Source of the DNA: a virus
DNA length: 64,000 bases
Virus record (IMG/VR): IMGVR_UViG_3300020442_000015
Span: 35,496-99,495 of that record
Strand: one strand, 5' to 3'
Shown here: positions 12,326 to 51,900 of the stretch, piece by piece
Layout of the letters: each line of letters opens with the position of its first letter
Numbering within the stretch: the first letter of the stretch is position 1
Made by a program: the position numbers and the translations under genes
The notes under the pieces: generated by a model
What the model was told of the DNA's origin: nothing
The model's input: only the letters and a program-made list of their open reading frames with translations
Databases searched by the model: none

Positions 12326-12483
12326 TGAATTTTGACTCTGAAGAACTGAAGTATCTGCTCACAGTATTGGGCAGAACATCATCTTTCACCCGTGCTAGAG
12401 GTGAACAAATCGATCACCCAACAATTAAACATCAACGTATTGAACGTAAAGTTCAAGATCAACTAAGACGTTTGCATCAATGA
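12325..12483 (+). CDS. Small hypothetical protein (52 aa, below ORF-track cutoff)
   Basis: MNFDSEELKYLL...RRLHQ fills the gap exactly, with TGATG and ATGA overlaps. Confidence 0.65.
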   Translation: MNFDSEELKYLLTVLGRTSSFTRARGEQIDHPTIKHQRIERKVQDQLRRLHQ

Positions 12484-13103
12484 AACTAACAATCGAAAAT
12501 CCATTCGATACATTCTATAAGAAGGCAAAAGATGTCATCGTGTTTGATGATATTATTCCTGAGGTATACCAAAATTGGTTGATAGATTGTATCAAGAATG
12601 AAGACCTGATGTGGCACCGTAAGGATGCTGCAATTAGTGATATGTTTGAGGATGATCCTCGCAATGGATTCTGCAACTTTCACTATCTCTTTGATAAGGA
12701 TGAGGGTGGAGAGTTGAGTCCATTGTGTAATGCGTTTATGCCACTGGCATTGCAGTTTAGAGAGAAACTTCAGGCAGAATGTTTGTTTCGTATGCGTGTG
12801 AATTGTGTGCCTGCTTGGCACTCTAATCAAGTACAACTTCCACACGTTGATTCGTATCATTTTGAAGCGTGGAATGTTATCTACTACATTGATGACAGTA
12901 ATGGTGATACAATCATCTATGATGAACGTACGAGAGATCATCAAGAATACTTGAAGATTGCAACGAGAGATATGTACACAGTTAAGACAGCAGTATCACC
13001 CAAGAAAGGACGTGCTGTTGCTATTAAAGGTGATCTCTTTCACGCTTCTACATTGCCAATGGGAACTTGGAGACCAGTGTTAAATATGGTAGTACATTCT
13101 TGA
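12480..13103 (+). CDS. 2OG-Fe(II) oxygenase
   Basis: PHVD, 'IYYIDDSNGDT', 'PKKGRAV...FHAS'. Confidence 0.88.
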   Translation: MKLTIENPFDTFYKKAKDVIVFDDIIPEVYQNWLIDCIKNEDLMWHRKDAAISDMFEDDPRNGFCNFHYLFDKDEGGELSPLCNAFMPLALQFREKLQAECLFRMRVNCVPAWHSNQVQLPHVDSYHFEAWNVIYYIDDSNGDTIIYDERTRDHQEYLKIATRDMYTVKTAVSPKKGRAVAIKGDLFHASTLPMGTWRPVLNMVVHS

Positions 13104-13105
13104 TT

Positions 13106-13780
13106 ATGGATAAAGTCTATAAGGTATATGATGGTGACGCTCACTGTTTGTGGAGGTCACCTGTTGTTGTAAATGAACAAGATGAGATGATTGCACAACT
13201 TGGTCGTGCACATCGTCATTTCAAGAATACTTTCACTGGGTTCGATTCTTCTCTCACTGGTAATGAATTGACTCTTGGTGCTCTACCTAACTTGTTCTCA
13301 CAACAGGAACAACGAGAGGATGACAAAGTATTTCTAGATGGTGAGAAGGATTTCAGTGGTTATAGGTTCTATAATATATTTGCACTGACAGCACCATCAC
13401 CACTATTTTGGCAACTATATCGTGACATTCAAACTGTAGTTCGCACAACACTTGCACACGATGAACCACTGTATATGCAATGTTGGATGAATTATCATAC
13501 TCCTGACAAGGTATTGAAGTGGCACGATCATAAGTTTCCATACCACGGTTATGTGAGTATTGATCCCAAGAATACCACCACTAAGTTTAGAAACGGTGAG
13601 GATCCTGTCCTCTATGAGATCAATAACGAAGTGGGAAACATATATTTTGGTGCTGCCCCAGGCAGGTATCACAAAGTATTCGTAAACGATGACTTCGGGG
13701 GTAGACGAATTACCCTTGGATTTGATATAGTAGAGACGCCTGATCTTCCTGACGATCAGTTCTCACTAATCCCTATCTAA
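13106..13780 (+). CDS. 2OG-Fe(II) oxygenase
   Basis: 'CWMNYH...LKWHDH...HGYVSI', 'YHKV', 'RITLGFD'. Confidence 0.8.
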   Translation: MDKVYKVYDGDAHCLWRSPVVVNEQDEMIAQLGRAHRHFKNTFTGFDSSLTGNELTLGALPNLFSQQEQREDDKVFLDGEKDFSGYRFYNIFALTAPSPLFWQLYRDIQTVVRTTLAHDEPLYMQCWMNYHTPDKVLKWHDHKFPYHGYVSIDPKNTTTKFRNGEDPVLYEINNEVGNIYFGAAPGRYHKVFVNDDFGGRRITLGFDIVETPDLPDDQFSLIPI

Positions 13781-13783
13781 ATA
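13777..13783 (+). promoter_or_regulatory. T4-type late promoter (CTAAATA) upstream of the bilin lyase gene
   Basis: Same motif and placement (overlapping a stop codon, about 23 nt before ATG) as at 2669. Confidence 0.55.
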
Positions 13784-13806
13784 CTGTTAAGCAACTTCGA
13801 CAACTT

Positions 13807-14316
13807 ATGGACACACGAGTCACTAACTGGATGGATCGTTCTTGTGGTAGATGGACTTCATATCGTAGGTATATCTACACCAAGTTCAACAAACAAATTA
13901 AGTATGAAACAACATTGATTTGTGACAAGAGATCTGACAACAGTTGGGGTAGTCAATGGTGTTCAAAAGATGAGGAAGGCAACTACTTCAGTGAAGGAGA
14001 TATGGAACTATTCATCACTCCTGACAATAAGTGTGAGCGTTCCAGAGGTTATATGTCAGAAGAACCAGACACAAGTGACATCTCAGTGATCGATGATGAT
14101 TGCCTTGTCTGGGAAACTTCGTATAATGGTATGACATTCCGCGAGGAGATTCGTCTCTGCGAGAATGACACCGTTAGGTTGAGACAAACCTACGGCAAGA
14201 AGTTGTCCGATGGGACAGTTTTTCTTGTTGGACAGTATTACGAAAAACGTTCTGGGGGGAACGAAAATGTACCTGAAGTCACAGATTCTGTCAGAGAATC
14301 AGAAGTGCATACTTAG
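13807..14316 (+). CDS. Phycobiliprotein (bilin) lyase, CpcS/CpeS/CpcV (S/U-type) family
   Basis: 'SCGRWTSYRRY' (cf. S.G.W.S.R), 'RSRGYMSEEP' (cf. R..GY.E..P), 'TSYNGMTFREEIRL', 'RLRQT', terminal 'YEKR'. Size and strand pattern fit the lyase beta-barrel. Confidence 0.8.
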   Translation: MDTRVTNWMDRSCGRWTSYRRYIYTKFNKQIKYETTLICDKRSDNSWGSQWCSKDEEGNYFSEGDMELFITPDNKCERSRGYMSEEPDTSDISVIDDDCLVWETSYNGMTFREEIRLCENDTVRLRQTYGKKLSDGTVFLVGQYYEKRSGGNENVPEVTDSVRESEVHT

Positions 14317-14455
14317 AAAAGCACTTATGTTATATCTGGCAAATACGCACCGCAAGCACCACAACAAACAGATCAGTGACACTCAATTAACTGTCACAGA
14401 GTGCAACCTCGATGAGATTGCAGATCTGCTACACTTAAGGCACGTCCTTAAATGA
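14267..14455 (+). CDS. Small hypothetical protein
   Basis: ATG 14267 behind GGGGG; coupled to the next gene. Confidence 0.5.
   Translation: MYLKSQILSENQKCILRKALMLYLANTHRKHHNKQISDTQLTVTECNLDEIADLLHLRHVLK
14376..14435 (+). promoter_or_regulatory. Promoter cassette copy 1 (GTGACA-N10-TGTCAC ... TGCTACACT)
   Basis: Inverted repeat plus extended -10; matches the other copies. Confidence 0.6.
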
Positions 14456-14784
14456 CGACGCCTCTCTTTCTATCGGAGTCCGTACCTTTGGAAGTAAGAA
14501 ACATTCTCAAGGCACTTGAAGTGGGTATGCCTGCAAAATGGGGCACGATTCAAGGAGAGATCGAGTACATTGGGGACGAATATCTCACCATTTGTGTTGC
14601 TTCTAAGGAGCAATGTGATGAGCATTGTTTTCGCAAAGAAACCAAATGTTGTGTTATAGTATATCAAGCGGACTGGGATGATCTTGAGATTGATCCTGCT
14701 GTCTTTCAATATAAGAAAGCATACAGGGGAAAAACTAACGATCACCCAGGAAACGAGATGCTCCCACCTACCGATCAACGATGA
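14452..14784 (+). CDS. Hypothetical protein
   Basis: 110-aa ORF downstream of the promoter cassette. Confidence 0.7.
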   Translation: MTTPLFLSESVPLEVRNILKALEVGMPAKWGTIQGEIEYIGDEYLTICVASKEQCDEHCFRKETKCCVIVYQADWDDLEIDPAVFQYKKAYRGKTNDHPGNEMLPPTDQR

Positions 14785-26956: not shown

Positions 26957-29900
26957 TGCCAGCCTACATTATTGAAACTGGTCGTAGTTATCCGAATCCT
27001 GTAGATTCTGAAGACTATGATAGAACCTATACATCTGATGAACATCCCTCCTTTGGAAGTGGTTATCAGATTGAGATTGAGGGCTCTGGACCAGGTTCAT
27101 ATGCATTTGGCAGGGATGAAGTCTTCTATATTGGTGATCCTACCGAGACTTGTGTAGAGTTTTGCGATGCAGACCGTAGAGCGGTCTATCGTTTCTACAG
27201 TGGTCGTTGGGAGGATCATTTTTATTATCATAAGGAAAAGATTCCTAAGGACATTCCTCAAGAAAGAAAGAGATATAATATTGAACCTCGTAATGGACAA
27301 GACTATTTTCAACTCAACAAGAGCAACGTATCTGGTTCTATTCCTGTGTATGTTGCTTGGAATGGGGGCGACAAAAATAGTTACCTTTCTACTTCTGGTG
27401 GACAGAAGTTGCTTGGATACGGGTTCCCAAGTGTATCTGCAGCAACCAGTGCGGGGGTAAGTTTCGTTAATGAGATGCCAACGGCACTCTATCACTATAG
27501 AAAGAATGCAGATGGTGATGTTGATGACTTTTACACCATCAATCCTGCCAATGAAGTCAATTTATCTGGTGGACCTATCCCTCCAAGGGAAGCAAGGCAG
27601 GGTGAGTACGTCTACCAAGGCATTTTCTGCTATGTTTGGACTGGTGGAGCGCCTAGAAACCGTAAAAGAGTCGAAACATCGGGTAAAGCGTACAATACTG
27701 GCGAAGTTGACCGCAATGGGTGGTATCAATACAACCAAACTTGGTCAAAAGCACGTTATCACGACGAACCAGAGGCAACTCCTGCTCAAGAAGGGTGGGG
27801 TGACCCAAATAATGCGGAACTAATCAGTACAAATGCCAACTTTGAGTGGTTTTACGGCAAAAATGGTGCTGTCAAAGCGGCAATGCCAAGATTCCTTGGT
27901 TTTCACGACTGTTTTGAGGGTCAATTTGTCTATTATCTGTATGATACGTCATTTCCCTTCAATGGTCCCATCTATGGTATCAACTTTACTACCACAGATG
28001 CTCCGTGTTGCCCTCAAAGAAGTCAAACACCGTGTGAACCCAATGTTAGGTACCACTCATTGTACTATGAGATGCGTCAAGACGCTTGGGTAACCAAGAG
28101 AACCTCAATGACAGTGGATAGCACTGAACACGGTAGTCAAGGAGACTCATTCTGGACTGTTGGTACAGATGAAGAGATGATCTTCTTCCGTTATACGTCT
28201 GCTACTGGTGCTTTCCGTGTTGGGGAGACTCTCAACAACTGGACAATTATGAAAGTACGATACTTCGGTGATGAATTGAAGTGTGGTTATATGAAATTGT
28301 TCAAAGAGGGTAAAGCAAGGGGCAATGAATTCACCTATCTGCAGAATATCACATCAGATGATGGTGCAACTGCTTCAGTTTTGGCAGGATATGGTATCAA
28401 AGACAAGGTTGCGTTCTTTGGTGTGTATGAATTTCCCAAAAAACTGTCATATTACCGTGTAGAGATCGATAATAAGGCACTGATTCCAAAAAGAACGCTG
28501 GATGTGGCAGTTCTGAAGGCAGTTATCAATAACAAAGGTCAGATTGGGCGCATTGAAATCATAAATGCGGGCAAAGATTATGTAAATCCGTCACTGATTA
28601 TTGGTATTCCCGATGTTGTGCGCGAAGAAGGGTTCGCAGATACGGCAAAAAACGTTCCAGAAGCGTTTGAAGACGACTTTGAGGTTGATTATGCGATCAA
28701 TCTTGAGTCATCAGACGAATTTGACTCCACAGAGCGTGCAGCACAAGAGGTTGCACGCAACATTCAGACACAACAATACATTACTGAAGACAATTTTACG
28801 GGTAACTTCCGCCAAGCGAAGGGTACAGTTACTGTAAATGAAGAGGGTTGCGTCAAATCTGTCACAATTACCGACAAAGGCGCGGGGTATCAACCTGGTG
28901 AAGAGGTGTATGTACAGGTTGTTGAGCGTGAAACCGAGACTAGAGAGGACATTGTTGTTGGTGAAAGCGCAAAGATTACTGATGATGAGGTTCAAAGATC
29001 CATTAAATCGGGTGGAATTCCTGATCCAGAGGTAAGATCTGGTTTTGATGAGATGTATAAGAGTGCTGGACAAGCACTTGGCACACTAAAAAACCCAATT
29101 CAGACATCTTATGTGACTGGATACATCAAAAGCACGGATATTGACATCAAAGAGAAGACAAAATTCTGCGAAAATGTCATTCCTAAGATCTGTATTAACC
29201 CAAATATCGGTGAAAACTGGCACGACATCAACACTTTTACCGATTTGGAGTCACTTTGGGGTAATGTCTCACAGCAAGACCCAAATTGGAATCAAAATAA
29301 TGCGTTTCTTGCTGGTGCAAAACAGAATTCTAGGAAAAATACGGGTCAAATCAACGCTAAAATGACTCAAGGTCTCCGTGGAATCTTCGGAGGTGACTGT
29401 ATTGAGATGGATCAAGCGAATCTTTATATGGTAAAACGCTTTTTTGATGTTCCTTGTCCGTATACAGCGTTCGATACTGACGGAAAAGAGAGAACTTATG
29501 GATGGATGCCATTCAAGTATTGCGGTAGTAAGAAAGAAGAGGCAACTATTCGTGTGACAATGACCATTGAAGGTGATGTCACTGGTGTTAGTGAAGCAGT
29601 AAACCAAAGATTCTTGGCTTGGTTGAAGTGGTTGCCTAAACCCACATTGACCGCTGGACGCCCCGTGACGGGCGGTTACAAGACACACGCCTGTACTAGA
29701 GGGTCAAACGTAAAAGGACGCTGCTACAGCACAGGAAACGGGCAGTATGAGTTCGTACCGACCTCTGGTGATGAGAATACCTTCGACTTTAATGGTCCTG
29801 GTGCTACTCTATCAACATCAAACATAGAGTTGGGACAACTTAGCACTTGGATTGGAGATAATATCCAGGTTTACACAGGTTTATTCTTCAACCAGATCAT

Positions 29901-33908: not shown

Positions 33909-36900
33909 ATGAAGGCAGTAACCGTATCTCAGAGAGTACAGGATCAAATTCCTGCATTCATTAAGGAAGACAACGAACAGTTTGTCAATCTTCTTGCCGA
34001 ATATTACCGTTCGCAAGAGAAACCTGGTCGTCCGTACGATATTCTCAACAATATCTTGAGATATACGGACATCGGTTCTGGTGAGTTTGATCCTAACTTC
34101 CTGTCTTCGGAATCTGCTGTTCTGAGCGCGGTTGACCCATATCAAAATACTATTGTTGCCGAAAACGTAAACTACTTCCTTGAGAAGGACGGCACACTCA
34201 AGATCGACGATGAGATCATTTATTACGAGTCGATCACACATTCGCCAGACGTTGTTTTCACTCCTGGTGTTAATAAAGAAGAATTTGATCGTAAGATCCA
34301 AGAATTTGAACCGATTGCATCTCAGTTCAACGGTTCTACCACAGAATTTAATCTGAAACTGTTGGGTGACCCAGTTTCGCCACAATCTGCTGATCACCTG
34401 CTGGTTATCGTCAATAATGAATTTCAGTTCCCAAATAGGGACTATTTTGTTGATGGTGATCGTATTCGCTTTGTAAACCCTCCTGTAGCGCCTACAGGTG
34501 CTCTTACAGGTGCTCTTAATACTATCAGGTACCTGATTGGTTATACAAGCGTTCCTGTCCGTTCTCTGGACCCTATTTCTGTTGGTGCTGATTCTAAGCA
34601 GTTCCATCTTACAAGAAATACTCAACCTTATCAACCACTATCAACGATTTCTTCGATTGTTGTCGTTGATAGAGTTGAGAAGAGACCCTTTGAAGAATTC
34701 ACGATCTTTGAAGACAAGATCATTTTCAAAGACACTCTTGGTGCAGGATCGACAGTTGATGTTAGATCTATTGAACTGATTGCTCCCGAATTCGGTGCTA
34801 ATGCTGAAGCAGTCGTCAAAGTTCAAAATGGTGAAGTAGAAGACATCATCGTTAAGGATGGTGGTTCTGGATACAGAATGAGTTTCTCTCCCAAGGTGAC
34901 TATTGCGTCAAACCTTGGTACTGGTAGCGATGCTACTGCAGAGGCACTTGTCAATGGTATCAAGAATGTTAGTCTTCTGTTTTCTGGTCAAGGTTATAGC
35001 GCAAACAACCCACCATTGGTTGAAGTCGATGCTCCTGCAGATCCCGAAGGTAAAACTGCTAAAATCACTGCAACTGTTAGTGATGAGATTGAAGGTGTCG
35101 TTCAGCTGAATGTTCTGTCTTCTGGTTCTGGATATGACAGAATTCCTTCTATCAAGTTCACGAATCCTGGTGGTGCAATCATCAGTGGTCCTACTTTGAC
35201 GGATGGAAGAATCGATGCAGATTCTTTCACTGTTGTTGATCGTGGTAGCGGATACACCACTGCTCCTCTTGTATACATCGATCCCCCAACGGGTTCAAAT
35301 GCAATCGTTGCATCCGTTATGGCACACCTCGATGCTGACGGTAGACTTGACAGAATTGAAGTTCTCAGTGGTGGTCAAGGATATGAAACTGTTCCTAGAG
35401 CAAAAATCATTGATCCTGTTGGCGCACAGATTCTCGATGTGAATGTTACTGGTGGCAGAGTCACCAACATCGAACTGTTGACTGGTGGTAAAGGTTATAC
35501 CGATGCACCTTCTGTGTATATCGTCGATAACCGCAAAGACGTTGCTAATAATCCTATTGGTGGTACTGGTGCAACAGCAGTTGCTACCATCTTTAACGGT
35601 GAAATCACCGACATCAACATTACCAGTTTCGGTGAGGGTTACTCTGATACTGAACCTCCAAAGGTTTTCATCGCTGCACCTCCTGCACCTGAGGCATCTT
35701 GTGATGTTGGTTTTGGTGAAATTACTGGTTTCACTATTCATAATCCTGGATCTGATTATCAACCCTCTGCTTTTGTAAATTGTAAGCGTGGTGTTTCCGC
35801 TGTTTCAGCGTATTCTCAGAAAGGAAACCAAATTTACAGCAAAGAGTCCGACACAATTCAGTCTTCTCACGCTGTTGGTTCGACTATTCACAACCTTGAC
35901 AACCTGTTTGCTAAGGAACTTTATCGTAGATATATCAATCAGTATCTGCCAAATGCAGAAATTGACTATAACAAAGTAAATGCTCCGCAGATCATTAAGA
36001 CGATCAGCGACTTCTACTCTTCAAAAGGTACGAAAATCTCCACACAGTATCTGTTCAAGATGCTGTTCTCGGAGAATGTTGATGTTTCATACCCGAAAGA
36101 TGAGGTTATCAAGCCATCTGCCGCAACTTGGAACGTCGATACCGTTCTTCGTGCGGAACTTTTAAGTGGTGATCCGCGTGATTTGCTGGATTCACAGTTG
36201 TTCCAATACCGAGATGCGGTTGATACGACTGTTGGCGCGGCATCTGCACTGATTGAAAACGTGATTGCGATCAATACTGGTGTGGGCACCGTGTATGAAC
36301 TCGCAATTTCTGAAGAAACTCTGCAAGGTCAGTTCTCTATTCCGTATAGGACGACTCTGGTTGAGGCACTTGACACTACAGAAAGTATTATTACGGTTGA
36401 CTCTACGATTGGTTGGCCAGAGAGAAACGGAACAATCCGTATCAATGATCAAGAAATTGTTCAGTATAAGGAAAAAACACTCAACCAGTTCATTGAATGT
36501 ACTCGTTCTAAGAACGGTGTTGTAGAAGATTGGGATGCTGGCACGCAAATTTACTCCGATGTCTTTGTTTATGTTAATCAGGGTCAGTCAAATGAACTGA
36601 AACTGCGCGTTCTGGGTATTGCAGACGCTAAGTCTACGGTTCTTTCTGACACAGGTTCTTACTATCTGCCTGGTGACAAACTGAATGTTGCGTCTCTTGG
36701 TTCTACAAGTGACGATCAAAGAATCACATCTTGGTTGTACAACGTTAAGAAACTGATTCAGGTTACTGGTATTGTCCCTGGTGGTCTCAATAACCAAACT
36801 GCAACTGTTACTTGCTCCAATAACCACGGTTTGTTGGTTGGTGACTCTGTTACCATCTATGGTGCAAACCCAACAGTGTTCAACGGCACATTCCTGGTGA

Positions 36901-39900
36901 CATCCCGTTTGAGCAATACGGTATTTGAATATAATATTCCACAACCAGCACCTAATGCTCCCCAAGGTAATATCCTTCTTTCAGTTGACCTGAACAAAGG
37001 TAAGTCCTCAGAAAGCGGTATCAACATTGCTATTAAGGACTTTACCACTAACGTCCAGAACACTTTCTTCAATGAGCAGTATTCATATATTGCTTCATCT
37101 GGTATTCCCAACTATGAGGTTGGTCCTTTCCTTGGATCTGCACTGCTTCCTGGTAACCAGCGCAAACTGATTCGTATTCCTCGCGTTATTAACACAGTTT
37201 CTAAGCGTGAAGATGTCAAGTTTGGTCCTGTTGGTGCTTGGGTTAACGGCGTTTCCGCTTGGTCCTATAAATCCAATAGCAAGATTAAGTTCGGTGGTGT
37301 GACGAGTATCACCATCGATAATCCTGGTAAGGGTTATGACGCAGCATCTCCACCAGTCATTGAAGTCAATGGTGGCGGTGGATCTGGTGGTGCGGCAACT
37401 GTTGTCGTCAATGGATCTCTTTATGAAATCGAAGTTACTTCTGGCGGTACTGGTTACACTAGCAGCCCTCTTGTTTCTATCGTGGGTGGTGGTGGATTCG
37501 GCGCTACTGCTACCGCTGTTATTACCAATGGTGTAGTTAGTAGAATTCTGGTCGAATCGCCAGGTCAAGGATATACATCACAACCCACCGTTTCTGTTTC
37601 TGGTGGGGGTGGAACAGGTTGTACTGCAACGGCATCAGTTCGTGGTCCGATTCAATCCGTATCTGTTACCAACTCTGGTAGCTCGTACACACTATCTCCT
37701 GAAATTAAACTGAATTCGGGTGAAGGTGCTGTTGCACAACCAATTATTATCAATGGTCGTATCGTTTCTATCGCTATCATTGCTGCTGGTAGAGGATACA
37801 CCACTGCACCTGAAGTTGTTATCAATGGTGATGGTTATGGTGCTGTTGCTAGAGCAACTATTGGTACTATTGGTGAGGATAGAGGAAAGGTCATTGGCGT
37901 TACTGTTGTAAACAGAGGTATTGGTTATTCCACTGGAATGACTACCATTCGCCTTGAAGCTATTGGTGAGCAAGCACAATTCTCTGCAAATGTCTTTGAG
38001 TGGACTCGTAACCTTCAAGATGAACTCTCTCTGAACTTTGATGCAGCGCGTGGTTACGTGTTTGCTGGATACAACACCCAATATGGTGGCGAATATGCAC
38101 ACGTCTCCGATCCTAAGCAACTAAGATACGTTCTTGGAGACAACGTGTTCAGAAACCAGTCAACTGGTCAACTCCAAGAACTGTCTACTGGTTATGTTCA
38201 CTCTCCGATTCTGGGATGGGCATTTGATGGTAACCCGATCTACGGTCCCTACGGTTATATCGATGCTACCGACCAGTCTTCTGGTATTAGAAGAATCCGT
38301 TCTTCTTACAAGGTTAAGGATGCATTGATATATGATGCTGCAACAAATCCGAACCCTGTGCGTGCGGATGGTCCACTTCTCACTGATTATCCTGCGGGTT
38401 CATTCATTGATGACTTTGAATATGTCTTCCAAGAAGGCGATCTAGATCAATATAACGGTCGTTTCTGTAAAACACCACAGTTCCCCGAAGGTGTGTATGC
38501 ATACTTTGTTTCTATTGATGCATCTGACTTCGGTAATCCAGTTTTCCCGTATGTTTGCGGTCCTCAACTGTATTCTTCTCCCGATCAGTGGAACTACTCT
38601 CAGAATGCTGTTCAGACTAATATCCCAGCAGATGTGGTTCGCTTCCGTGATCCATATGAGGATGTTGATATTGATATTGACCGTCAACCCAACCAAGACA
38701 CCGATACTCTTGTTACGGAAGAAGGTCTTGCTCTAATCTTTGAAATCGAAGATATTAACAGAAACGGTATCATTGATGGTGATGAATCTACCGCAACAAT
38801 CAATATTGCTGAAGAACCTGTCCTGCAACTCTTCGATTACTATCCTAGAGTTTCGGTTAGATCTGAAGTTGACATCGATATTGAGACAACTACTAAATTT
38901 GAGGATGCTCAAGTTGACGGATTCGTCATTGAGAACCCTGGTATCTCCTATAAAGTCAGTGACAAACTGTACTTTGATAATGAAGGCACTGAAGGTTTCG
39001 GTGCATCTGCAAAAGTTGACGCTGTTAAGGGTCTGACAATTTCTGGTTACTCCAGTTATATGGCAAATGATACTCCTTATGGACGTATCACCACTCCTGA
39101 TGAGCACGAATTGCGTGTTGGCGACGAAGTTATCGTCCAAAGTACACCTATTATTGATGACACCAACAAAACCTTTAAGGTTAAGGTCATCTCTGGTGTT
39201 GAAACTGTTACTGTTACTCAAGCTGGTTCTGGTTACTCTGAGGAACTGCCTCCCACATACGAGGTTATCTCTTCCACTGGTCAAGACTTTAGAATTGACA
39301 TCCCAAGAACAGAAGCAGGTGCTGTTAACACTGTTAATATTATTAACTCTGGTTCTGGATACGATAAGGATGAACCCCCTCAAATTCGTGTCTCTCACCC
39401 ACAGAGATTTAAGAAAGCGACTTACTTCCTGTCCTTCTTGAAGGAAAATGCATCTACAACTACTATCACTGACATTAAAGTTGCAGATGACAGAACAATC
39501 TATGTTTGCGGTAAAACTGTAAAGTCTGACGGTGACACAGCTGGTCTCCTCGCTAAGTTCAATAGTGATGGTCGTCTTCTCTGGCAGCGTACATTGTTCC
39601 CAACTGTTCCTGCATCAGGAACCAAGAGTTTGGAATGGAAAGCACTGTATGTTGAAAACAGCAATCCCCACAACATCTATGTTGTTGGTGAGACTGTTCC
39701 TAACAGTGTTAACCTCACACACAATCCTGACGTTGTTGTTGCTAAGTATAGATCTGGTTTCGATAACGCTAACAACCCTGATGGTATTATCCAGTGGCAG
39801 CGTGATATTGCTGGTATCTCTGGTGCTACCAGACGTGACTATGCAGCATCTATCGCTCTAGATCAAGACGGCAGAGTGATGATTGGTGGTTACACCGATG

Positions 39901-42900
39901 CAAACTCCCTTGCTCCCGACGATATGTGGGTAGCACTGCTGGATATTGACGGCACCATTATGGAGAAGCGTAAGATCGCTTCTGAAAGTGGTAGTGAGCA
40001 TCTGGTTGATCTCCAATGGAAATCCACCGATACCTTTATGTTCATCGGTATTTCTGATCCTGCTGGTGCAAGTGATATTATTCTTGGTGAAACTTACTAC
40101 GATACTGCAACTGTTGAACTGCAGTGGGCAAAGAAAATTGAGAGTGGCGCATATAAGTTTATGCACCCCACCTTCACCATTGATGAATATGGTGCTGTAT
40201 ATGTCGCAGCAACTGCTGTGAATGCTCAGGACAAGAATTATGGTGTGTTGTACGTCAAGTTTGATAATAATGACTACACTACACCTGTTGAGCATAAGAT
40301 TTATGTTCCTACTGGAACCTATGATGGATGCCACAATGCTGGTATTAAGTTCGACGTGTTTGGTAACATTGACCTTGGAGTCTCTGTCACTAAGGCATTT
40401 AATGATGTTCAGTCCACAACTCTGAAGATTTCTTGGAATAGTGGCAACATTATCAGTGCTTCCTCTGCAAGTGAGAGTAGTGGTATTGGTTATCACGCTG
40501 TTGACTTGTCAAGTGATAACTCTGGCGACACAGTTGTTATTGGTAATAAGGTTGAAGCAGATCAACTTGCAATCTTCAACTGGAACACTGCCGATAATCT
40601 GCTTGATGAAACTTACAATGACACTCTGAAAACTGGTACGAACAAGGCTTGGTATGATACGAACTATGCAACTATCGATACTGCTAAAAAGCAAGATGGT
40701 GCATCTTCTGTTCAGATCATAGACCCCAACTCACTTGTTCTCCAATATGGTTCTGATGTAGCAACTGAGTGGGCAACTGAAGCGTATTTCGCAATGCCTG
40801 CAGCTAGCTACACTGCAAATAACACTGACCCCGAGTTCTTCTCTGTTTCTGATGCTCTGAACAACACTGTTAGGTGTGGTCTTATTGCTGATCAATCCGA
40901 TGCCAACAATGGTAAGGTGTTTATTGCTATTGGAGGATCTTCATCATATTCTGCTGCAGCAACTTATCGTGCAGCGTTCAATGCCGAAAGTTTCGTTCAC
41001 GTTGCATTCACTAAGGAGCGTCCTGGTGTTGGTAACTATCGTTATCGTGTTTTCATTAACGGTGTACTTGCTCTCGAAACTCTGAGCACAACTGTTGATG
41101 TCAATCTTAAGGATGTAACCCTCGGACCTGTATCCACACCGAGTACCAATAATAGCTGGATAGGATGGGTTGATAACTTTGTTGTCTCTCCAGTATTCAA
41201 ATACAACGATGCATTCACTCCTGCAGTTGTTGCTGGTACAAGCAGCCCGACTCAAGCATTCCTCTACAAGATTGATAAGGACAAGACGAAACTTGGCACC
41301 TTCAACCTTGACGATGTTGAGACAGGTCACACTCTTGTAACCGCCGCTGAGAGTGGTTATACGTTTAATACCCAACCTGTCACTGTTAATCCCTGGATTA
41401 TTGGTCCTGCAGGTATTCAGATTCTTGATTATTCTGACGTAACCTCTACTCACGTTCCTGGTATCTACACATTTACAGATTCCTCAGAGAAGTTTAGTGA
41501 GAGAACTGCAACCATTCCTACACAAGGTGGTACGAAGCTTCTGCTTTCTGCAACTGTTATTCCCAAGTTCTACTTGCGTGATGCAACATATAACAGTATT
41601 GACCTTGTTAAGACCCTTACATTCAATCAACCCGCAACTTTCACTAAAGGTTCCATCCTCCAACAGTATTCTGTAATTGGTGGAAGCGATGTTGTTTCTG
41701 CATATGGAACAATCGTTGAAGCTGGAACAAACTATGCAAAGATCGGTAAGATTATTGGTAACTTTGACACCACAAAACTCCTGAAGTCAACGGCAGGTGA
41801 CATCAATACTCTTGATCGTAACTTCACTGTTGAAACTACAACACCTCAATGGGTTGAGAACTTCTCATATACTGTTGGTGATGTTGTTTACAATGCTGGT
41901 AAGATTTACACTGCAACTTCTACAGGCGTTTCTGGTCCTTTGGCACCAGAGCACACCACTGGTATTGTGACCGATGGTGCTGTCAACTGGTCTTTCACCA
42001 GTGTTTCTGGCAGTTTCGACGTTGATCTGGCAAATACTGTTTACAATGGCAGCACTCTGGGAGCGTTTACTTCGTGGAGAGCATTTGCTGCAGAAGATTA
42101 TACTATTAAGATTGAAGAAATCTATGGCGATTCCTCCTTTATTAAGGGTGATACCATTGATGCGGATGCAGTCAACCTACAATTTACCGTTGATGCAACT
42201 GGTAAGATTGCTACATTTGCTGGATTGATTGGTGTTAAGAAGTTCTCTTTGATTGCTACACTTGACAAAGACGTTATTCCTGCTTCTGGTCTTGCAAATA
42301 CCGATCTGGTGTACTGCTCCGCCAACAGTAGACATAACTTTGAGGCAAATGAAATCATCTTTACAGAGAGATTTGCCACTAATGACTACAACGGATCCTT
42401 CTTTGTTGAAGAAGTCTTTAGTTCTAGAGAGTTTACATTCCGTTTGAGAGGAACTGCTGTTCAGGATCCCACATTCTCAGGCACAGGTTCTTCTGTTTCC
42501 AACGTTAATATCTACGCTAAGCACCCCAAACTGCTGTTTGTTCGCTATCACCAGTACATTTTTGACCTGGATGATCCATCAAACCTCGGTTATTACCTGT
42601 CTTTCTCTAAGGATAACCAGTACAAACTGGAATATCCGTTCATTAACATCATTAGAGAGGGTACACCTGGTCTGACTGACGACGATTCACCCACTCCGTT
42701 GGTTAAATTCATCGTTACAGACTCCGTTACCAATATTTCATACTATTTTGATCCATCTAGAACTGGAGCAGACTCTCCTGTTGGTGAAGGATCCTTTATT
42801 GACGTTATTCAGAGTCCTTATTCTGGTAGATTTAGAGTTTCTGCAACTGGAACTCAAGGAACTACCTTCGATTTCCCACTTCTCGTTGAACCTGAGAAGA

Positions 42901-45900
42901 CTATCGCTCCCGTTGGTAATAATGAGTTCGGTAATGCTCGTTCTTCTTACTCTACAACCTCTCCAAAAGCGATTGGACCTATTGCAAGCATCAAACTTGT
43001 CAACCCAGGTGGTTTCTATCAGAAACTTCCCATCGTTACGGACATTGCATCGAACAGAGAAATTGAAAAAGTTCGTATTCTCAACGGTGGTACTGAGTAT
43101 GTGAACGGTATTTACTACAATGTACCTATTACTGGTGACGGTGAAGGTGCAAGTTGCAATATTACAGTTCAGGATGATGGAGATTTCACTGGTGTTATCA
43201 CCGATGTCACTCTTACATCCGCTGGTAAAGGATATAAAACTGCATCTATCGACGTTGATGCTATCCCTGGCATTCTTGGACCTCTTCTTGCAGGTTCTGG
43301 TGCACAACTTCAAGTTGTGATTCCTGATGAAGGTTCGGGTGCATCGGTGTTCCTGCAAGGTAAGAGCATCGGTAAGATCAAGAAACTGAAGAACAACGAA
43401 TTTGGTTTCGGATATTCTCACGATTACACTCTGAGACCCGAAATTACTTTCCCCGTCAACCTTCAACTGTTTAATACCGCTATTCTGTCGGAGATCAAGA
43501 TCACCGATCCTGGTTCTGGTTATACCTCGGTTCCTGCTGTTGTTATCAGTGGTGGCGGTGGATCTGGTGCAGAAGCAGAAGCAATCGTCAAGAACAACAG
43601 ACTTTCTGAAGTTATCATCAAGAACCCTGGTTCTGGTTACTCTTCTGAACCGACTGTTACCCTGAAGTCTGAATTTAACTACGTTGTCAACGTTGACTTG
43701 GGTTATTTACAGTTCAACTTCCCGCACGGCATCACAACTGGTGCAGAAGTTCAGTTGAGAGCAGAAGATCTTGGTTCTACAGTTGGTGTTCTGCCGAAAC
43801 CGAGTTCTGCAGGTTTGGTTAGCTTGAGCCCAAATCAGATCTACTACGCAATCGCTGGTGAGCAAAACTCCTTGGAATCTGACCAACTTCGTATTGCACT
43901 GACCAAACTTGACGCAGAATCTGGTTCTTTCATCACATTCTTGACTCAAGGTGATGGTCGTCAGGTTCTGTTGACCGAAGTGTTTGGTGGTCAAGCGACT
44001 GCAATCGTTGAAACCTCCAGATTCCTTGAAGGTGAACTTGTTTATCAGGGTTCTTCGCTGGAACTCGCATCTGCAACTGGTTATGTTTCTACTAACGAAG
44101 GTTGGCAGATCGGTCCTCGTATCCTGAAACTTGAAAACTATGATGGTATCTGGAAAGAAGGTGAGCGTGTAACTGGTCAGGTGTCTCGTGCATCTGGTTT
44201 GGTTGACAACCTGTCTATTGCTCGCGGTACTCTGAACATTGCATCTCTGACTAATACACCTGGTCAGTTTATCGATGACGTGGGTAAACCCTCCGAAATC
44301 GTTCAGAAGATCCAAGATTCCTATTTCTATCAGAACTTCTCTTACGTTATTAAGTCTCAGACACCTATTAACGACTGGAGAAAGTCTGTTCTGGAAACAA
44401 ACCACCCTGTTGGTTTCAACCTCTTCGGTGAACTAGCAATCACAGGTGGTAAGGATATTTCGGGTCGTAAAGTTATTTCCGACTTGATCAAGGAAGTTAA
44501 TATCAACTCCTTCACTAATATCAATGAAATTACATCATTTGCTAACGCACAACCGATTTACACCCAGTTTAATAATACTGAGGTGCTCTTCAGACAGAAG
44601 AGACTTACTAACTCTGAGGAAATTCTAACCTCTATCGTTAAGAAGATCGATGATGTTTCTGATCAATTCAATGGTATTAAAACCCAGTTCCCACTGAATG
44701 TTGAGGGCGAATCTATCACAGCAACTGAAACTCAGATGTTTGTGTTGATTAACGGTGTTGCACAGGCACCTCAAGAAGCATTCTCTACTGCTGGTCCTTC
44801 CATCGTCTTCTCTGAAGCACCTAAGGCACCTTCTAGAATTAAATTCCGTGAAATTCAATACTCCCAAATTACTCTGACTCGTTTGACGTTCAGTAACATT
44901 GGTGGTATCTTCCCGCTGACTGGTAATACTGTTAGAGGTATTGTTTCTGAGGCAACTGCAACTGTTATTGATTCTGGTGTTGACTATATCGATGTTTTCG
45001 ATGTTGAAGGTACATTCCAGACCAACGAACAAATTCTTAGCAGTGCAACTGGATTCAACTCCACTCTTGCAACTGTAAACCCTGTTACTTCTAAGACGAT
45101 CTTTGAGCAAGGTGAAAGAATCACCAACCTCAAGGGCGACTTTGCAATTATTGAAGAAAATAACTTGCAGGGTGGTGTTATTGGTAACGAACTGGTCGTT
45201 TCTCGTACTTCTGGTACTGATAAGTTTGAGACTGGTGAATTTAACATCAAGTTTAACGATGTTATCTACTCTTCTAGATCCAAAATTGCTGCTACTGTTA
45301 CTGTTATCGCTCCGTATAGCGATGACACCAGTAATCAAATTATTGACCAGGTTGATCTGTCTCCCTCGTCTTCGTTCTTTGCTCTTGTTTTCCAGAGAGT
45401 TCCTTCAACAACATTCCCGAACGTCATTCTTGACGACATCGGTGCAACTGTTATTAACCCAACAGAACTCAATGACCTTGAGTCACCCAATAACCAAGAT
45501 TTCCTTGACTTCGAGTCTGTCCGTAACCAAGAAATTCGTTACGATCAACTGACTGGTACCGATTTCGCACCTGGAACCAACATCAGATTGAAGAAGATCT
45601 ACTTCGGCAACTCTTCTCTTAGACAGGTTACTGATACTCGTGCTAAGAATGCATCTGACGCATTGGTGAAGAATGCACGCTTTATTGCTGAAGAAGCCGT
45701 GGGTGATATGTTGAATTTCTACCCCTCCTTTAGCATCAATACTGTTGGTGGTAATCAGGATTGTATGGATGACATCGTTGATGTTATCAACGCAGCTGCT
45801 TGGCAACTTGAGTTTGATGGCAACTCTGAGATCTGGGACATTGCTAACACATATGTCCAGAACCAGGCAATCTACCATCTTGACGGTGCAGTTCCTCAAA

Positions 45901-48900
45901 CCATCTATGCAATGAACGCAGCAAGAGATCTTGCTCTGAAGTGCATCAGAATGGAGAATATTGATACTGAGTATACAACTCTGTCTCAGTGGAAGGATCT
46001 GACCCTGACTCCTGAATACGAAGTTGTTAGCAACAGTCACGCTGACGCTCGTACACTGATCCTTGCTAACAAGTGGTATATCGCACACGAATCACTGCAC
46101 TACGCTAAGACGCAGAATCCATCTCTGGTAGTTCCTGGTGGAGATGTCAACTGCTTGTCTGACATCGTGGATATGGTTGAATCGATGGCATACAACTTGG
46201 CACACGGTGGTAACGACTTTGTTTACGATGCAACTCGTTACTATATGGCAGGTGCACACGTTGCTGGATATGAAGATGACACCGTAAATGCCTTCACTAA
46301 GGCAAAGGCGATGGCAATCAGCATTATGAGAAACGAAGCTGTTGTTAAGCAAGGTTCCCACGGTTGGAACCAAGTGACTGACACTTCTATTACTGCCGAT
46401 CCTGCTAACCCGACTTGTCAAGCAGTTGCTGCTGCAATCACAACTCTGATGGATATTCCCATCAATGCTCTGGGTACTAACGCATCTCCTGGAACTTTAG
46501 CAGCATTTGAGGCAGCATATACTAAGACTGCACCTCAAGCAAACTATGCTGATGGTAGAACATCTATCGGTAGCAGCACTGCTTGCGTGAGTCAGACATC
46601 TGCCGTTACTAACTTTATTAAGATCATCACAGATTCTCTGCAAGATCCTACAGGTGCAGATCCTGCAACCTATCAGTGGTCTATCAGTAATGTTACTCGT
46701 GTTGAACCCCCATATGCGTTTGAAGATAACGAAACTATTCGTTCTATCAAGCACAACTATAGTAATAAGTCTTCTGGTGGATTCTTCAACTTCGGTGACA
46801 CGATGAAGGGTATCACCTCTGGTGCTACCGCCGAAATTATCGGTACAAATGCTGGTAACAAGTGGATCTACACCAAGGGCGTTACTGGTGCGTTCTCTGG
46901 AAATGAGTACATCACCAACTCCAAGATTACCTATGCAAATGTCTCCGTAGACAACATTACATTTGGTGTTGGACCTGGATCTCTTGATTTCAGTGGATCT
47001 GGTAGCAAAATTGATATGATTGCTGACCAAAGAGTCAATTTTGGTACTGCTGACTTCACTATCGAAGCTTGGATTCGCCCTGACAGCGTAACTGGTGTTC
47101 AGAGAATTATCGACGCTCGTTCTACATCTTCAAGCGTTGCGCCAACACTCTTTATGAGTGGAACCTCTCTCCGTTATGGTACTGGTGCTGGTGACCATAT
47201 CACTGCTACTGGTGCCATCACAACCATCGATACCTGGTATCACATCGCTGTTTCCCGTGCATCGAACGTTACTAAGATGTTCGTGAACGGTACGCAAGTC
47301 GGTTCTGATTATACTGACAATAACGACTATGGCGATACAGCGTTCAAGGTTGGTGCTGCTTGGAACAATGGTGAAACCTATGACGGACATCTGGACCAAA
47401 TGGTCATCAGAAAATCCGCTGCATATTCTTCTACTTTTACTCCCCCCACCGTATACACTACAATATACGAAGGTCTTGATGTCACATTCGGTCTTAACGG
47501 TAGTCAACCGTTCCCGATGGAAACTACTGCAATCTACGCGACTTATGGTCAGACCATAATCTCTTCTGCAACTGCTGACGGTGTTGAACTGTGGCGTAGT
47601 GAGATTATGACTGAGGAAGTTGATGTTTCTCGCGATGATTATCGTGAATGTGCTGACATCATTGATAAGAACCGCTTCTGGATTGCAGAAGAAGCAGTTG
47701 GTCGTATGAAGGCAAAGTATCCTGACTTTGTTATTCCTGGAGACGTTGGTCTCGCTACTACAGGTACCGACAAGTGTCTCCGTGATACTCACTCCTTTAT
47801 CATCCCCGCAATCATTAACGATCTTCGTTATGGTGGCAACTTCAACACTATCGTTGCAGGTCGTGGATACCTGGAAGGATCTGGTGCTCTGAAGCACGTG
47901 AACGGTGAACTTCTCCAGTCCATCTATACCTGGCGTGAAGTTGGTAAGATCTGTATTGATGTTATCACTGCAAACCAAGATGATCTGACTGGTGAATATA
48001 CCAACAGAATTCGTGTTCCTAACTACTTCTCCTCACCAGCGTCTTCTCAAATTACAACGTTTATTACTGATCTGATTGACAATATGTTGGATGTTATTGC
48101 TCCAACTGGTCACAGATTCCGTGATGGTGCTGACCTTCTCTACTTCAACCGTAAGTCTATTGCTGATGAAGCAGTGGCAATGCTGGAAGAGAAATGGCTT
48201 GTCAACATTGCGTTCTATCAGCAAAGCAAACTCACTATCCCCAACAGAGAGAAGTGCATCCGAGATCTTAGAGATCACATTATCCCTGCTGTTGCTGGTG
48301 ACTTGATTACTGGTGGTAACTCCAATATCCAAGGTATTATCGATTCTTACTTGGATAGTCAAGAAGACATCAACTACATTGAAGGTGAACTTCTTCCTAT
48401 GCTGGATGCATTTGAAGATGTGAAGTTCCTGTGTGGTAAAGCACTGGAAAACCTGTTGGTTGGTCGTAATGAGAACATTGCTAACCTGACTGGAACTAAC
48501 GCTCAAACAATTAACGATTTCTATCAGTATCAGTACACTGATCTCCCCGCATACAGAAAGGTTTACGATGCTGCTGTCAACTACAGTGTTGATGGTGCTG
48601 AAATTACTGAGAGCACTTTCTATCCTCCCGATCCCCACATCTTCTCTGGTACCGATCGTGCACTTGATTCTGCAAACATCCTAGAGGAAAATGCACGTAT
48701 CATCGCTGAGGAAGCGGTTGATCTGGTTATGAAGACCTCTGCGTTTAAGCATACTGGTTTCAAAGTTCCTGGTGGTAAGGTCAACTGTGAAGATGACCTG
48801 GTTGATTACATCAATGCAGTCTGCCACGACCTCAGATTCACAGTAAACGAGAAGTCTTACGACGCATCTGCACTCTATCTGGATACTCAGATGGGTCTGC

Positions 48901-51900
48901 AGCACGTTACCAATCAATCCGCAGAGACTGTTCACGCCTATAAGTTGGCACGTGATATGTCAATTCTCGCGATCCGCAACAAGCTTGGGTTTAATCCCTT
49001 CGAGGAGTCCACTGGAGGCGGTGGTGCTCTTGGAGGAGGCGGTGGCGGTGGCGTCCCTCGCGGTGATTATGATAACAATGCAACTGCAAATGGTTTCTAC
49101 GATTCTGCAAACAGCATTGAAAATAACCTCAGATTCATTGCTACAACTGCAGTTGGACGTGGACTGACTAATTATCCTTCTCTGACTATCCCTGGTGGTT
49201 ACCAGAACTGTGTTGATGACGTTATTGACATCCTGAATGCTCTGATCTTCAACTTGAAGCACGGTGGCAACAACAAGATGTACTACGCAACTGAGTTCTA
49301 CATCAGCAACGCTAACGCAGTTGTTCACGTGCTTTCTCAGGCAACTGAGACTAAGTACATTATGGAACAGGCACGCGATATTGCTATTGAGGTTCTCAGA
49401 AATCAGTCTGTCACAACCAACGGTACAACAGAAGGATCTCAAGCGATTGACAGCACAATCACTACTGACACTGCTAACCCCACTTGCCAAAATGAGGCAG
49501 CAGCAGTTACAACACTGATGGGTATTCCTATCAACCTGTTCACTCAAACTTCTAACCCTCAGGGTTACCTGAATGGTGTAACGAGAACACTTCCTGATGA
49601 GTGGCCACTTACTGGTGAGCGTGCACTCAGACGTGACATCGACATTACCTATGATATGGCAGGTAACGGTGACTGTGCTCTGGTTTCTGCTTCTATTGAC
49701 ACCCTGTTCTCGTATGTGATCAACGTCGTTAATACTGCTGCAGCAGGTAGCGGTAACTGGTTGACAAATAGTGGTCTCGTTAGAACCACCAAGGCAACTG
49801 GCAACACTCTGAATAATGGTGGTGGTCTTTGCTACAACGTTAGATCTGCTTCCAATGTCCTCTTCGATCTTCTTGAGGATACTCTGGGTAGAGCAGGTGA
49901 GATGTATCGTCAGGCAGCACGTCTGCTTATTATCAATGATAACTACATCAACCGTGAGGCATACTACAAGACTACTCAGCAGTACAGTGGTTATGGTGGT
50001 GATGAAGCATATGGTAGTTCTATCCGTAAGGCATTCATCTACGACTTGCTCACCGATGGTAATGCTGCAACCCTGCAACTCGTTAACTCCTGGTTCGATG
50101 CTGAGGGTAACTTTATTGCATTCCCTGGCGTCTTCAGAACTTATCTGATCTATCACGCAACTGCAATTAAAGATTTCTGTAAGCAAATCATTGGTCAGAG
50201 AGCAATTACTCCTGGTACTTACAACCAAGAACCCACGTACACGGATCGCGAACTTCGCCCAACTGTTTACGCTGAGCATAAGATCGATCAACTTGATCAC
50301 TTTATTCAGACCGCTCTGCTGCGCTCTACTCCTCCGACAGTTATCCTTAAGCAGTCCTTCGACGCTGGTGTTGCGGTCAATACCAACGGTTCTATCACTG
50401 CTGCGGGTCATCCGTTTGAAGCATACGATAGAGTCAGTTATCAAGTTCTTGGTAGCAATATTGCCGAACTTACCTTCACGCAATATTATATTCACCCCGA
50501 TACGACTGCAAATACCATCTGGTTGGCAGAATATATCGATGGTCACAAGATTACAAGTCTGACACCTGGAACCGCAGGTCAAATTCATACGTTCGTCTGC
50601 TTACGTGAGAGCGGTATTGACAGAATTACCACCACATATGGTGATCGTGTCATTCCTACTCCTATCACTGGTGGTATTCAACCTGCTGACATCTTCTATG
50701 GCACTTCTTCTGGTGCATATGGTGAGGTCATCCGTATTCAGGACAACCTCGCAGAGGTTATGTACAAGATCAAGCACGCAGAAGTTAATGTTACAACTGA
50801 AACCTTCTTCACTCTTGGTGAGACTGTGGTTGTTCAGGGTGCTACTGGAAACACTTCAACATTGCTTGCTTCTACTGGAGCAACTGGTACGGGTTACGTC
50901 AAACTCATCGTCAATGGCGGTCAATTCCAGCAAGGCGATGTTATTGAGGGAACTACTAGCGGTGCACAAGCATCGATCACAAGTATTCCCGACGATAGAA
51001 TCCTGGTCAACTTCGACAAGGGTGAGTTCATTGCAACTGACATCGTTTACTCCAAAGAAGATTCTGGTAAGGCAAATGCACTAATCGTCCGTAATAATGA
51101 CGGTGCTCTGATCAACAACCAACTTGGTCGCGTTACATTTGACATCGAAACTGTCAAAGGCGAATTCAAGGAGAGAGATGTTATCTACGGTTCTGTTACA
51201 GATCAGATCATTGAAATTGAAGGATTCAACATTCTTCCTGGATTCGGTGAGTATCTGCACTCTACGGAGATCACACGCTTCACGTATGCAAGTTTGACCA
51301 CTGATACTGGTGTTACAGACACATTCCAAGTTGGTGACGTGCTGCAACTCCAAAACGCAGGTCAGTCTGTGGGTCACACCTTCGTGGTTACCGAGCACGA
51401 TACTGATAACAACTACGTTTATCTCGCTAACGAGACGAACAGATACATTGGTATCATTGACGACTTGAGCAATGACCTGACCGCTATTGCAAACAATACT
51501 GCATACCAACTTGCCAAGATTCCTCCTGGTTCTAACTTCCCAAGTGTTTACACCAGCGCGATCTCCAACGTTACAATCACACCGACTTCTGCATATGGTA
51601 AGGTCGCGAAGATTGAACAAGTTGGTCTTCGCCTGATTATCCACCTGGAAGATAGTAATGGAACATTCCTGAAGAACTCTCAGATTATTGGTGACTTTGG
51701 ATTCCAAGGTGCTTGTGGTGGGGCGAAATACCTACGCGGGCGCGTGAAGAGATTCTTCCGTGGTTTTGATGGTTCTCAACAGAACTTCAAGTTGACCACT
51801 GATAACGGAACTCCTTACTTCCCAGATCCCGCAGGTCATATGATGATCTTCGTGAACGGTATCCTCCAACCTCCTGGCGGTAACAACGCTTACACGGCAT

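Follow-up and report, generated by a model that had tools for sequence, protein, structure and literature searches.

Among phycobilin lyases, those of the S-type form the Cys82/84 class and those of the T-type (CpeT) serve beta-Cys153/155. In work by Gasper and colleagues from 2017, a phage CpeT reportedly bound PEB, transfer to host subunits not being demonstrated, and we know of no phage bilin lyase with a proven client. In cyanomyoviruses CpeT is the lyase usually reported, as the original prediction for this locus stated (PMC10665884). S-type lyases have been described there only in cluster C and in S-CBWM1, clusters A and B having the T-type only, under the gene name 'cpcV', and a role in serving the host is assumed for them; the subfamily name rests on that publication only (PMC10665884). 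Cyanophage S-type lyases are, then, already published (S-CBWM1; cluster C, e.g. S-CREM2), and the same family is annotated as S-type lyase in S-CBWM1, S-CRES1-3 and the cluster C myoviruses. For the cellular enzyme GtCPES of Guillardia theta (4TQ2), mutagenesis showed that E136, R146, R148 and E168 have a role either in binding PEB or in keeping the structure intact (bioRxiv 10.1101/2020.03.31.018853). What is new in the locus described here is an S-type lyase gene in a P-TIM40-like myovirus, beside two tandem cpeT genes and in a late-promoter context, which corrects the published view that limits S-type lyases to S-CBWM1 and the cyanomyoviruses of cluster C.

The stretch of DNA analysed (the window, 64 kb) is the last part of a 99,495-bp IMG/VR viral contig (G000) that is estimated to be ~54% complete. 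Tail-fibre, baseplate and helicase genes indicate a T4-like cyanomyovirus. Its closest isolates by baseplate gp6 are P-RSM6, S-SZBM1, P-TIM40 and S-WAM1 (52–57% identity), and by these sequence comparisons the phage is a P-TIM40/P-RSM6-like myovirus. The S-type lyase gene (nt 13807–14316, plus strand) specifies a protein of 169 aa. It is preceded by the last gene of an oxygenase-rich run (phrog_2696, nt 13106–13780, plus strand), and downstream is a conserved small gene (phrog_8681, nt 14452–14784, plus strand) that provides a synteny anchor with P-TIM40 gp056 and S-SZBM1 gp038. Upstream of the window, the contig carries two tandem CpeT-like (T-type lyase) genes (L029:8903-9343 and L029:9348-9794, corresponding to nt 28903–29794 of G000) that encode proteins of 146 and 148 aa, so that this phage carries three bilin lyases. 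A search of the 99.5 kb of this only ~54% complete contig yielded neither an ho1 gene nor one for a bilin reductase.

The product of the gene had been predicted from the bare sequence to be a CpeS/CpcS-like lyase of the S/U type, and this was borne out by profile and structure comparisons. In a check against the family profile (Pfam CpeS, PF09367) it scored 37.8 bits (cut-off 23.3), with residues 78–148 covered, while searches of PHROGs and NCBIfam gave no match for the lyase and a Megablast search of phages also returned none. A phmmer search of 1.84 billion cluster representatives recovered 82 relatives, nearly all of them 140–175 aa long, and an alignment of 40 family members (A1) provided the basis for the conservation calls and for a profile. 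Five residues (G14, S18, E113, R126 and E146) are invariant in A1, and the wider set of E113, R124, R126 and E146 plus G14-W16-S18-R20, which form a G-x-W-x-S-x-R motif, is either invariant or at least 90% conserved. The A1 profile was needed to reach proteins of known structure, as the single sequence gave only marginal phmmer matches to the PDB; with the profile, GtCPES (4TQ2) was matched at an E-value of 8.6e-15 (positions 4–148) and CpcS-III/Ycf58 of Thermosynechococcus elongatus (3BDR) at 5e-9.

Modelling of the protein (AF2, pLDDT 91.8) returned an N-terminal helix followed by a ten-stranded barrel and disorder past residue 150, the barrel taking up residues 3–148 and the disordered tail residues 150–169. 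The model thus has the ten-stranded antiparallel lipocalin/FABP-like beta-barrel by which the family is recognised. The best Foldseek matches were 3bdr and 4tq2, and in VIA-align comparisons 3BDR scored a Z of 17.2 (rmsd 1.7 over 129 residues) and 4TQ2 a Z of 16.9 (rmsd 3.2 over 144 residues), which is ~2.5 above the next barrels (nitrobindin-like). When residues are mapped to 4TQ2 with a chain numbering offset of 15, E136, R146, R148 and E168 of GtCPES align with E113, R124, R126 and E146 of the phage protein, and R18 and W69 align with R20 and W51. Going by the profile matches and the model, the product is very probably a bilin-binding protein of the S-type lyase family.

Compared with the cyanophage CpcV proteins (S-CBWM1 gp164, S-CREM2 gp109, and those of S-B68, S-N03, S-H34 and S-CRES1-3), the protein belongs to the same short-form family, with 34–40% identity over 83–88% of the length. 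They share the five invariant residues and fall into one starred short-form clade of 37 rows. The phages themselves differ, those with CpcV being T4-like cluster C viruses, S-CBWM1 or 73-kb phages, all of which lack cpeT and the phycobiliprotein-fold units described below, whereas the phage of the window has both (two cpeT genes and units). CpeT of cyanophages, the other bilin lyase class of cyanomyoviruses, has a related barrel but is assigned to another Pfam family (PF06206). Among cellular enzymes, the best structural match is CpcS-III/Ycf58, although the two proteins share 23% identity and the cellular enzyme is ~190 aa long and carries a helical insertion. Identity to GtCPES is ~20%, and again the helical insertion of ~20 residues is not present in the phage protein. 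As judged from A1 and the profile alignment, no member of the short-form phage clade has this insertion or the cellular enzymes' Trp75 'lid' position; Trp75 falls in an insert state or unaligned loop. The two absences mark the protein as a short-form member and are a feature of the subfamily rather than family-defining; they also mean that recognition of the client may differ in the phage lyases. GtCPES Met67, a specificity residue, aligns with Ser49 of the phage protein, but this was dropped as a hint to the choice of bilin because it is too speculative.

In a tree of the lyases, the protein branches within a well-supported clade of five members (with P0002, P0005, L010 and L011), of which P0002 is 80% identical to it. 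Marine metagenomes commonly contain the protein cluster, one of its members being found on 192 contigs, and DNA of the lyase locus is present in runs of 13 studies. When 185,579 species genomes were screened for the phage signature motif, no relative from a cellular organism came up. One metagenomic protein (P0078, 163 aa) ends, over its C-terminal third, almost exactly like a phage-type lyase (FREEIRLL...RLRQT...GQYYETR), but its 110 N-terminal residues are unrelated, and it may be a chimera or the product of a truncated gene.

Directly ahead of the lyase gene is the late-promoter-like motif CTAAATA (nt 13777–13783, plus strand), of the T4 TATAAATA type, which overlaps the TAA stop codon of the upstream ORF. 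The spacing of about 23 nt originally noted is exact, with 23 nt between the motif and the ATG of the lyase, in an intergenic gap of 26 nt. The late box of T4 and S-PM2 is TATAAATA / NATAAATA (PMC2984593), and the sequence TCTAAATA, with its 23-nt gap before the ATG, is a TATAAATA-like box on the coding strand. The bare count of CTAAATA in the window is at the level of chance (seven against 6.6 expected). Position and strand set the motif apart: in the 99.5-kb contig all 15 copies of CTAAATA are on the plus strand and none on the minus strand, and of the 40 plus-strand TAAATA sites, 12 lie 15–35 nt ahead of a called start, against 0.9 expected. Ahead of the fibre and baseplate genes the spacing of [A/C]TAAATA to the start is 22–29 nt. 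The arrangement is indeed that of structural genes, as had been proposed, with eight of the 12 positioned sites preceding virion genes (a 1200-aa virion protein, the baseplate hub gp26, two fibre proteins, one fibre-assembly-like protein and three baseplate wedge/connector proteins); apart from the lyase, none of the 12 is recognisably metabolic. The two cpeT genes lack a late motif in the interval 15–35 nt ahead of their starts. The element resembles the T4-type late promoter in being an A/T-rich 7-8-mer ~22–29 nt before structural starts and strand-specific, and differs from the T4-type box in having C instead of A at the second position in the 15 copies here. Because the motif stands directly ahead of the gene and the gene is part of a co-directional block of late genes, the lyase is most likely made late, and transcription from CTAAATA itself is the probable route, as far as sequence can indicate.

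An operative promoter is not the only way to account for the motif. The lyase could be transcribed by read-through from the oxygenase run, or with some other timing, CTAAATA being a leftover of the insertion site. Some features of the locus fit this: the 26-nt gap, the overlap of the motif with the upstream stop codon, and the lack of a convincing terminator upstream. In scans around the gene, sigma-70 promoters and terminators were no richer than in shuffled sequences. Metatranscriptome contigs from two libraries of two studies cover nt 14065–14359 as pieces of the 3' half of the lyase gene, a weak sign of expression given that carry-over of DNA is possible. In a further pair of sister libraries of uncertain type, one contig bridges the motif site (nt 13593–14514), consistent with read-through, while another, of 584 nt and from the library labelled 'METAGENOMIC RNA-Seq', begins at nt 13789, 6 nt past CTAAATA. 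A T4-type late transcript would start ~6–7 nt downstream of the box. The second contig thus begins at the expected place, but this is a weak hint only, because contigs cannot show transcript ends.

Comparison with relatives bears on the same question. In S-CREM2, S-B68, S-N03, S-CBWM1, S-CRES1 and 13 other viral contigs the lyase start has no motif within 100–120 nt, and in this the lyase genes of the CpcV phages, with no late motif within 120 nt, are unlike that of the window. The two closest relatives (L010 and L011) carry CTAAATA 0.9 and 0.44 kb upstream of the lyase, with small ORFs between. Conversely, P-TIM40 (CTAAATA) and S-SZBM1 (TTAAATA) have the motif at the same architectural junction and no lyase. 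The junction consists of the end of a 2OG-oxygenase run, the late-like motif, small ORFs, the phrog_8681 gene and a helicase gene. What is common is the architecture alone: the ORFs immediately beside the lyase have no homologues among those at the junction of P-TIM40, and in the 2OG-Fe(II) oxygenase and cupin run (window nt 12480–13780; L030/L031) the architecture but not the gene content is conserved among P-TIM40, S-SZBM1 and this contig. Since the flanking ORFs are non-homologous between phages, the junction appears to be a variable slot. By these comparisons the motif is not tied to the lyase, and the simplest reading is that a lyase gene was inserted into a slot that already bore a late-type promoter. 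Homologous lyase genes without the motif, and the junction motif without a lyase, would both agree with an inert leftover, but the strong positional enrichment 22–29 nt before starts argues otherwise, and read-through would itself originate from fibre genes with late promoters further upstream. A non-operative motif is therefore considered rather unlikely. In cluster C phages, an unannotated gap of 300–600 nt precedes the lyase gene (L002:1853-2464, L003:1896-2494, L004:2183-2488), and the genes just downstream of the lyase carry CTAAATA 22–30 nt before their starts.

The reading that best accommodates these results is that of a host-antenna lyase. The protein would be made late, behind a gp55-type late-promoter motif, and its beta-barrel would hold PEB or PCB in the cavity by means of two glutamates (E113, E146) and two arginines (R124, R126). 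The bilin would then be presented to, and ligated or chaperoned onto, Cys82/84 of host phycobiliprotein subunits through a thioether bond. With host phycobiliprotein subunits as clients, the gene would be an auxiliary metabolic gene like the published 'cpcV'. S-CBWM1, S-CRES1 and the cluster C phages that carry the lyase have no units of their own, so host proteins are the only substrates available there. Against this reading stand the late timing, which would be uncommon for a gene that maintains the antenna, the missing insertion and Trp75 lid, with which client recognition may differ, and the Cys84-like units that the phage of the window, unlike most lyase-bearing ones, encodes; nor did the incomplete contig yield an ho1 or bilin reductase gene. 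Taken as a whole, the statement that this is a phage-lineage S-type lyase, made late and attaching bilin to Cys82/84 of the host, is held to be somewhat on the probable side, and the most fitting description of the gene is a further helper gene for the host antenna, carried by a new phage lineage.

The protein may instead bind bilin without passing it on productively, as a carrier or sequestering protein that holds free bilin from dismantled phycobilisomes or from a bilin reductase. Conserved binding residues without the lid Trp75 or the helical insertion would suit such a role, and the phage CpeT mentioned at the outset would be a precedent. On the other hand, conservation of the family, with its full lyase barrel, is strong over a range of very dissimilar phages (82 clusters), and bilin is transferred by those cellular S-type lyases that share its core residues, so a carrier without transfer seems improbable.

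A candidate substrate within the phage had been pointed out at 45.6–50.3 kb, and it does exist, in the form of six units of the phycobiliprotein fold with a cysteine aligned to Cys82/84. They lie at nt 45591–49511 (plus strand), inside a 6380-aa gp7-like baseplate-type ORF (nt 33909–53051). On this ORF Pfam Phycobilisome scored 37 bits, summed over the 45.6–50.3 kb slice, although single units alone mostly escaped Pfam (unit 3 scored 21.1 bits against a cut-off of 22.2). A self-search of the ORF delimited six units of ~150 aa each at residues 3895–5201, and a weak seventh at residues 5324–5449. Each of the six has one invariant Cys with Asp at C+3, in the pattern C-x-[R/D]-D. Searched against the whole PDB, the profile of the six units found almost only phycobiliproteins, in which the Cys falls at alpha-84/beta-82 and the Asp at Asp87. 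The model of a unit is of moderate confidence (pLDDT 65), and its fold matches are to PE beta (TM ~0.65) and to APC, PE and ApcE (Z 13–14). By uniting one S-type and two T-type lyases with six units that have an attachment Cys, this phage offers a compact test case for deciding if the clients of phage lyases are in the host antenna or in the virion.

The original prediction took late timing as a sign that the lyase modifies a virion protein. Spelled out for the six baseplate units, the enzyme would be made along with the structural proteins and place bilin on the Cys84-like cysteines, giving a pigmented virion. Several findings are in keeping with this, namely that the units retain the Cys and the Asp at C+3 in alignment with Cys82/84 and Asp87 of PC and PE, that S-type lyases are the class for Cys82/84, that the late-like motif is shared with structural genes, and that S-type lyase and eight units are likewise found together in a second lineage (G003/G004). 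Presence and absence of the three components were therefore compared across genomes by profiles with positive controls. The contig of the window has the S-type lyase, two CpeT and six to seven units; G003 has the lyase, one CpeT and eight units; and G004 (41% complete) has the lyase and eight units, CpeT not being found. S-RIM2, P-TIM40 and S-SZBM1 have no S-type lyase but one CpeT each, together with three units, nine units and units, respectively. The complete isolates S-CREM2, S-B68, S-N03, S-CBWM1 and S-CRES1, as well as G005 (97% complete) and G001 (79% complete), have the S-type lyase, no CpeT and no units. Among the genomes tested, lyase and units thus occur together only in the contig of the window and the G003/G004 lineage, both T4-like and metagenomic.

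With seven lyase genomes lacking units and three isolates with units lacking the lyase, co-occurrence of the S-type lyase with the units is unsupported. Overall, units were found in 368 cyanophage records and the S-type lyase in 15. The lyase of the other unit-bearing lineage (L014) branches elsewhere in the tree from the five-member clade described above; the two do not form sister clades, so there is no dedicated lyase subfamily for the units. Nor does the motif help, as P-TIM40 and S-SZBM1 carry it at the junction without a lyase, which makes it a matter of position. To our knowledge, no pigment has been reported in virions. The distribution of lyase, units and motif thus fails to support the step from late timing to a virion substrate, and tailoring of the virion by this lyase is regarded as quite improbable. 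Its extension, in which the S-type lyase and the two CpeT together pigment the Cys84-like (and Cys155-like) sites of the units and make the virion responsive to light, for example through light-dependent adsorption, is given slightly less credence still. These profiles point to CpeT, and not the S-type lyase, as the enzyme that travels with the units. CpeT is present in all five of the near-complete unit-bearing genomes counted (G000, G003, S-RIM2, P-TIM40 and S-SZBM1; G004 left out) and in none of the seven without units, a small sample that is confounded by phylogeny. The giant ORF also carries a YHYH domain (residues ~1357–1538), and a Laminin_G_3 domain lies between pairs of units.
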